From the NCBI RefSeq assembly GCF_056712565.1, contig NZ_CM160072.1: a stretch of DNA of 64,000 bases, one strand, 5' to 3'. This document shows, one piece after another, positions 46,693 through 47,027 of this stretch (the stretch's first letter is position 1; each line of letters begins with the position of its first letter). Made by a program: the position numbers and the translations under genes. The notes below the pieces were generated by a model, which had not been told where the DNA came from, ran no database searches, and saw only the letters and a list, made by a program, of their open reading frames with translations.

Positions 46693-46820
46693 GGCTTTTA
46701 AACTTTGATGTTAAATGAATTTAACAATTAGATCACACTGTGTAACCTATTAGTTTTTTTAATCTGAGCCATTATAAATTGTCCGTTGAGCTTCTACCAG
46801 CAAATACCTATAGTGGCGGC

Positions 46821-47027
46821 ACTTCCTGAGCCGGAACGAAAAGTTTTATCGGAATGCGTGTTCTGGTGAACTTTTGGCTTACGGTTGTGATGTTGTGTTG
46901 TTGTGTTTGCAATTGGTCTGCGATTCAGACCATGGTAGCAAAGCTACCTTTTTTCACTTCCTGTACATTTACCCTGTCTGTCCATAGTGATTAATGTAGC
47001 ACCGCCTAATTGCGGTGCTTTTTTTTA
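46821..47027 (+). ncRNA. gcvB: GcvB small RNA
   Basis: Divergent from gcvA; begins ACUUCCUGAGCCGGAACG, contains the G/U-rich stretch GUGAUGUUGUGUUGUUGUGUUUG, ends with terminator caccgcctaattgcggtgcttttttt. Confidence 0.9.

Follow-up and report, generated by a model that had tools for sequence, protein, structure and literature searches.

A canonical divergent gcvA–gcvB regulatory unit in an Escherichia coli genome

We find that positions 46693..47027 of the 64,000-nucleotide stretch of DNA analysed here (hereafter the window) almost certainly represent the canonical Escherichia coli gcvA–gcvB divergent unit. In this unit, gcvB (46821..47026, plus strand) encodes the 206-nt Hfq-dependent small regulatory RNA GcvB, while gcvA (45775..46692, minus strand) encodes the 305-aa LysR-type regulator of the glycine cleavage system, which is also the activator of gcvB. 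Since every functional element is identical to its K-12 counterpart, the unit would be expected, with very high confidence, to work in this strain as it does in K-12. The locus is already known; it is real but ordinary, and it holds nothing new. It has reportedly been published and described in detail from Urbanowski 2000 onwards.

Results

The window carries a full-length gcvB identical to that of K-12

An Rfam 15 scan of the whole window at the gathering threshold returned a single GcvB match (RF00022) at 46821..47026 on the plus strand, with a score of 199 bits versus a gathering score of 42 and an E value of 1.1e-46. The match covers model positions 1-204 of 204, and its score is nearly five times the gathering score. 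An initial annotation, made from the letters of the window, had placed gcvB in this interval and had named the lack of such a covariance-model match as the finding that would speak against it; the search gave the opposite outcome.

The alignment to K-12 proposed alongside that search agrees with it. A base-by-base comparison reveals 206/206 identical nucleotides between the gcvB of the window and K-12 gcvB (b4443), and the spacings to gcvA (128 nt) and to ygdI (16 nt) are likewise the same. In the K-12 record (NC_000913.3) gcvA occupies 2941650..2942567 on the minus strand, gcvB 2942696..2942901 on the plus strand and ygdI 2942918..2943145 on the minus strand. The divergent arrangement of gcvA and gcvB had therefore been read correctly, and the interval given for the unit starts, as it should, at the first intergenic base, while its end lies 1 nt beyond the annotated 3′ end of gcvB (47026).

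Taken over the whole locus, the window and K-12 MG1655 (b4443, b2808 and b2809) share the same gcvB, the same GcvA and YgdI proteins, both spacings, the gcvB promoter, the GcvA inverted repeats IR1 and IR2, and the terminators. They differ at two bases in the gcvA leader (46697 and 46740) and at 10 positions within gcvA, all of them synonymous. Over the 5.5 kb compared, no base separates the window from the E. coli type strain ATCC 11775 (100% identity).

The locus is conserved throughout the species. Of 5426 complete E. coli genomes, 5425 contain a match to a 501-nt query taken from around gcvB, and a 350-nt query spanning the interval and the spacer to ygdI is at least 99% identical in 5382 of them. 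The one remaining genome of the 5426 is devoid of gcvA, gcvB and ygdI altogether. In the genome-reduced strain DGF-298 the segment from yqcA to ygdK, which includes all three genes, was deliberately replaced by a cassette (PMC10652928), and DGF-298 may be the genome in question. We also note that one plasmid-classed record in the E. coli collection carries all three segments.

Annotation of the locus follows a different pattern. Complete E. coli records annotated by PGAP that we inspected contain no gcvB feature, for example NZ_CP033092.2 (locus 2722..2927), and among the records inspected the gcvB ncRNA feature is found only in the curated K-12 record.

GcvA and the shared control region

The 305-residue product of gcvA passes the NCBIfam model NF008352, 'transcriptional regulator GcvA', with 512.8 bits versus a cut-off of 288 over residues 1-304, and a tblastn comparison finds it 100% identical to K-12 GcvA. 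Beyond gcvA lies an orthologue of YgdD (NF008125).

The 128 nt between the two genes (46693..46820) form a divergent control region that contains the gcvA leader, the GcvA sites and both promoters. This region is equal in length to that of K-12, and the two differences within it (46697 A>T and 46740 A>G) both fall in the gcvA leader and outside the inverted repeats. From approximately 46744 onwards, the control region is almost invariant in a cross-genus alignment spanning five genera.

Published work describes gcvB as divergent from gcvA, with overlapping promoters and a shared GcvA binding region (PMC9299463, PMC5002191). Two GcvA repeats with the motif ATTAG-n5-CTAAT, IR1 centred at -65 and IR2 at -43, have been reported in the gcvA–gcvB intergenic region across 150 Gammaproteobacteria (PMC5002191), a source in which a 48-bp DNase I footprint of Wilson et al. 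1995 is also summarised. In the window, IR1 is ATTAG-TTTTT-TTAAT (ATTAGTTTTTTTAAT, 46749..46763), with CTAAT at 46749..46753 on the minus strand. Its centre lies at -65 from the gcvB start, exactly matching the published position, and the repeat is nearly invariant in the cross-genus alignment. The weaker IR2 (ATTATAAATTGTCCG, 46771..46785) was located from the published centre at -43 (PMC5002191) and its sequence read here; it sits directly beside the gcvB -35 element.

The gcvB sigma-70 promoter (46786..46814, plus strand; 9/12 matches in a promoter scan) is composed of a -35 element TTGAGC (46786..46791), a 17-nt spacer and a -10 element TATAGT (46809..46814) that ends 6 nt ahead of the annotated +1 at 46821. 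In a six-sequence alignment the -10 element and the spacer from 46794 are invariant, and the last base of the -35 element (46791) is variable. On the minus strand, the first six bases of IR2 read TATAAT (46776..46771). This hexamer is likely the gcvA -10 element, which would then overlap IR2, an assignment that fits the "overlapping promoters" of the literature. The GcvA footprint of Wilson 1995 is reported to extend from -28 to +20 relative to the gcvA start; the repeat positions used here are those of PMC5002191.

Anatomy of the GcvB RNA

GcvB folds with a minimum free energy (MFE) of -62.1 kcal/mol (z = -3.6), below all 200 dinucleotide shuffles, and is built of five stem-loops, with three seeds (R1, R2 and R3) and a pair of intrinsic terminators. 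Stem-loop 1 (nt 7-61; 46827..46881) is recovered in the MFE fold, in the Rfam structure line and in the RNAalifold consensus, where its stem displays G-C/G-U/A-U switches. Covariation is limited to one compensatory pair in an RNAalifold analysis of seven sequences that are too similar to be informative, and support for the structure therefore comes mainly from the Rfam model.

The G/U-rich target-binding stretch described in the initial annotation corresponds to R1, a single-stranded seed of 27 nt (GGUUGUGAUGUUGUGUUGUUGUGUUUG, nt 63-89; 46883..46909) located between stem-loops 1 and 2, in which 26 of the 27 bases are G or U (T in the DNA). R1 is largely unpaired in the centroid fold and, in the alignments, invariant in Escherichia, Citrobacter, Enterobacter and Superficieibacter; its target-binding role is known from published work, in which R1 is the main target-binding region and is used for most targets (PMC9299463). 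Stem-loop 2 follows at 46915..46931 (GGUCUG-CGAUU-CAGACC), as seen in both the Rfam structure and the folds.

A terminator scan identifies the internal terminator t1 at 46934..46954, a hairpin GGUAGC-AAA-GCUACC followed by six U, which would give a short GcvB form of ~130 nt. Indeed, two terminators yielding RNAs of ~130 and 206 nt have been described for E. coli and Y. pestis (PMC1557403). In one E. coli laboratory strain, TUM1509 (NZ_CP195093.1, locus 3254..4688), the transposase gene of the IS4-like element ISVsa5 (IS10-type) splits gcvB at approximately nt 125, near t1.

Downstream of t1, the conserved R2 sequence (CACUUCCUGUACA, nt 135-147; 46955..46967) is invariant in 7/7 aligned sequences, Photorhabdus included; its role is taken from PMC9299463. 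The R3 seed (nt 156-171; 46976..46991) lies in stem-loop 4, is also a pairing site of the sponge RNA SroC, and is invariant in the same way in seven sequences that include Photorhabdus. Our numbering here matches the literature: bases 156, 160 and 162 of the GcvB described here are G, G and C, which agrees with the R3 mutants G156C, G160C and C162G of Miyakoshi et al. (PMC9299463), and the nucleotide numbering is therefore in register.

The final terminator t2 (46998..47026), found by the terminator scan and in the Rfam structure, has an 8-bp stem with six G-C pairs, a 6-nt loop and a U8 tail, and is conserved across genera in the alignments. This is the intrinsic terminator ascribed to gcvB from the letters. 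Its hairpin occupies 46998..47019 and is followed by eight T (47019..47026), the first of which closes the stem.

Regulation and related systems

In K-12, whose gcvB sequence is identical, GcvA with glycine acts as an activator of gcvB and GcvA with GcvR as a repressor, and purines strengthen the repression (PMC3658693, PMC1557403). By analogy with this literature, GcvA in the present strain would bind the shared control region and activate gcvB at high glycine, whereas GcvA and GcvR would repress it under limiting glycine. GcvA would also regulate its own gene from the overlapping divergent promoter, where negative autoregulation of gcvA has been described (PMC5002191).

Once transcribed, GcvB together with Hfq would base-pair with the translation-initiation regions of target mRNAs and repress them, predominantly through R1, also through R3 and rarely through R2. 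According to PMC9299463, the GcvB regulon comprises more than 50 genes of amino-acid and peptide transport and metabolism; R3 serves phoP, lrp, map and ydeE, both R1 and R3 serve gdhA, cstA and sucC, and R2 is used essentially only for cycA. Targets in the literature include dppA, oppA, cycA, sstT, gdhA and ilv, all of them repressed. GcvB would itself be controlled by SroC, whose pairing with stem-loops 1 and 4 leads to the decay of GcvB by RNase E (PMC9299463).

These features are shared with the best-known relatives. As in E. coli, gcvB of Y. pestis is divergent from gcvA, activated by GcvA, repressed by GcvR and furnished with two terminators (~130 and 206 nt), and its RNA represses dppA and has a G/U-rich R1 seed; the RNA is 77% identical to that of E. 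coli, and its t1 has 2 extra bp ahead of the U-run (PMC1557403). Salmonella GcvB, as described by Sharma 2007 and relayed in PMC9299463, likewise shares the gcvA-divergent arrangement, activation by GcvA, repression by GcvR, the two terminators (~130 and 206 nt), the G/U-rich R1 and repression of dppA, while 10 nt differ from the E. coli RNA (PMC9299463). A more distant likeness, in layout only, exists with other LysR-type divergent pairs such as oxyR–oxyS and metR–metE, which have overlapping promoters and inverted-repeat boxes in which one site activates and another autorepresses (PMC5002191); gcvA–gcvB differs from these pairs in its effector (glycine through GcvR), its motif (ATTAG-N5-CTAAT) and its RNA family.

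The locus in other genera

For a view beyond E. coli, 298 Gb of genome contigs were scanned with the R2-core 14-mer TTTTCACTTCCTGT. This pattern is unspecific, and the matches listed are mostly chance occurrences in Bacteroidota and Firmicutes; they include at least six true GcvB loci, which serve here as a basis for layout conservation rather than as a survey. The six loci, from E. albertii, Citrobacter werkmanii, Enterobacter cloacae, Enterobacter sp. Bisph1, Superficieibacter electus and Photorhabdus caribbeanensis, each cover the full RF00022 model with scores of 154-199 bits among the matches listed.

Among these matches, gcvA is divergent from gcvB at a distance of 128-129 nt in all four loci that extend far enough, and ygdI is convergent at 12-27 nt in five of the six. 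Citrobacter, Enterobacter and Superficieibacter all show the complete gcvA–gcvB–ygdI layout; in E. albertii the gcvB–ygdI half is seen and the locus ends before gcvA. In Photorhabdus caribbeanensis (locus 1923..3444; GcvB 154 bits), a csdA homologue lies directly downstream of gcvB on the same strand and ygdI is missing. Having ygdI as a convergent neighbour is thus not a trait of every gcvB locus.

The alignment is nearly invariant between approximately 46744, a little ahead of IR1, and the end of the t2 tail; the exceptions are positions in the stems and loops of stem-loop 1, stem-loop 2 and t1. Free variation is seen in the part of the spacer that holds the gcvA leader, about half of it, and in the sequence beyond t2.

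ygdI as a neighbour of the unit

On the opposite strand, gcvB converges with ygdI (47043..47270, minus strand; K-12 b2809), which encodes a DUF903 lipoprotein of 75 aa. The open reading frame extends over 47043..47273 (76 codons), the start used in K-12 being 47270. YgdI passes the NCBIfam model NF033216, 'YgdI/YgdR family lipoprotein', with 113.2 bits versus a cut-off of 42, and carries an L-S-A-C lipobox at its N-terminus. The next gene downstream of ygdI encodes CsdA, which passes its curated NCBIfam cut-off. As the initial annotation had noticed, the gcvB terminator nearly abuts the 3′ end of ygdI: the last base of gcvB is separated from the ygdI stop codon by 16 nt (47027..47042), a spacer identical to that of K-12.

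This proximity raises the question of whether the unit should include ygdI, with t2 doubling as the ygdI terminator or with read-through from ygdI producing a transcript antisense to the GcvB 3′ end, either of which would couple the two genes. We regard such a coupling as unlikely, and treat ygdI as a neighbour and a candidate link to the regulatory unit only. Besides the 16-nt gap, coupling is favoured by five other genomes in which the two genes are likewise convergent neighbours (12-27 nt apart) and by the terminator scan, which across 46500..47400 finds no terminator-like site on the minus strand and hence no canonical intrinsic terminator for ygdI. Minus-strand RNA forms the t2 hairpin as well and, within 46980..47045, the reverse complement of this hairpin is the sole one after the ygdI stop codon. 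However, in this orientation the hairpin is preceded by A8 and followed by ACAUUAAU, which contains only 3 U in 8, and it is therefore not a canonical intrinsic terminator; a bidirectional terminator shared by gcvB and ygdI is thus unsupported by the sequence. Photorhabdus has GcvB without ygdI, which further argues against coupling, as does the failure of a ygdI deletion to reproduce the acid-resistance phenotype of gcvB (PMC2676305). We found no report of gcvB–ygdI coupling or of a shared terminator in the published papers searched. We therefore retain the gcvA–gcvB pair, with ygdI as a convergent neighbour, as the preferred reading.

A separate observation concerns sequence diversity. A stretch of 618 nt (46741..47358), which spans the gcvB promoter, gcvB, ygdI and part of the ygdI–csdA spacer, contains zero differences from K-12, in a 5-kb neighbourhood that otherwise shows 115 differing positions (2.3%) and whose next-largest SNP-free gap is ~207 nt. 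Across E. coli, a 434-nt ygdI segment is at least 99% identical in 5415 of 5425 genomes, compared with 1621 of 5425 for a piece of gcvA of equal length. Between species the picture is reversed: ygdI differs from that of E. albertii at 15.1% of nucleotides (20 synonymous and 9 non-synonymous codons), compared with 11.1% for csdA, and its closer match is the ygdI of Citrobacter werkmanii (11.1%) and not that of E. albertii, the opposite of csdA. This combination of a trough at gcvB–ygdI within the species and fast ygdI divergence between species might stem from a sweep, from recombination or from an incongruent history.

Because ygdI lacks a canonical terminator, transcripts of this gene may stop at t2 or continue through it, antisense to the GcvB 3′ end. 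Together with the trough, which could reflect a sweep or selection on overlapping convergent transcripts, this would make gcvB and ygdI more than neighbours, a suggestion that we consider improbable.

An internal open reading frame that is very unlikely to be translated

The gcvB transcript also contains an open reading frame of 46 codons (46854..46994, with its ATG at GcvB nt 34), so that gcvB could in principle be the mRNA of a small protein. Both E. albertii and Citrobacter werkmanii retain the intact frame, as such a reading would expect, but the sequence upstream of its ATG (AGTTTTATCGGA) contains nothing resembling a Shine-Dalgarno sequence, and the start context is absent in Photorhabdus. 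Moreover, indels of 1-3 nt shift the frame in Enterobacter cloacae, Superficieibacter and Enterobacter sp. Bisph1 and alter the C-terminal half of the product, while the R2 and R3 nucleotides under the shifted frame stay invariant. This pattern fits a constraint on the RNA and not on a protein. These frame-shifting indels above invariant nucleotides rule out the 46-aa frame as a gene, in line with the published finding that GcvB is not translated (PMC1557403), and we judge the small-protein reading very improbable.

Finally, it is vanishingly improbable that the gcvB of the window is a chance resemblance, which the E value of 1.1e-46 over the full length of RF00022 excludes, or a decayed, non-functional copy, given that the gene, its promoter and its terminators are 100% identical to those of K-12, where gcvB has been characterised by experiment.

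Other RNA genes in and around the window

The same scan of the window recovered a full-length gene for the small RNA CsrB at 28232..28591 on the minus strand (RF00018, 381.7 bits versus a gathering score of 71). Three tandem tRNA genes with a period of 110 nt lie at 51350..51643 on the plus strand, with 61.4 bits each; by position, they are presumably the initiator tRNA cluster metZ–metW–metV. This cluster has two copies in E. albertii and three in Citrobacter, with different spacing. The E. albertii locus also contains, at 3336..3377 on the minus strand, a marginal match to the small RNA ES036 (CssrF), 39.2 bits versus a gathering score of 37.6, downstream of csdA/csdE; the Rfam 15 scan of the whole window gave no ES036 match at the gathering score.

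Discussion

In sum, the window carries the canonical gcvA–gcvB unit, a reading against which nothing of substance speaks, and this copy of gcvB makes no addition to existing knowledge of GcvB. Its value is that of a quality check, in that a genuine small-RNA gene and the layout of its regulation could be recognised from the raw letters. Judged by synteny and alignment across the loci from other genera, the adjacency of ygdI belongs to the Enterobacteriaceae proper, and what is conserved as a unit is gcvB paired with gcvA. The missing gcvB in RefSeq/PGAP records is an annotation gap and not evidence of absence. Because PGAP apparently leaves gcvB unannotated in nearly all complete E. coli genomes, automated pipelines will see the region as an empty intergenic gap.
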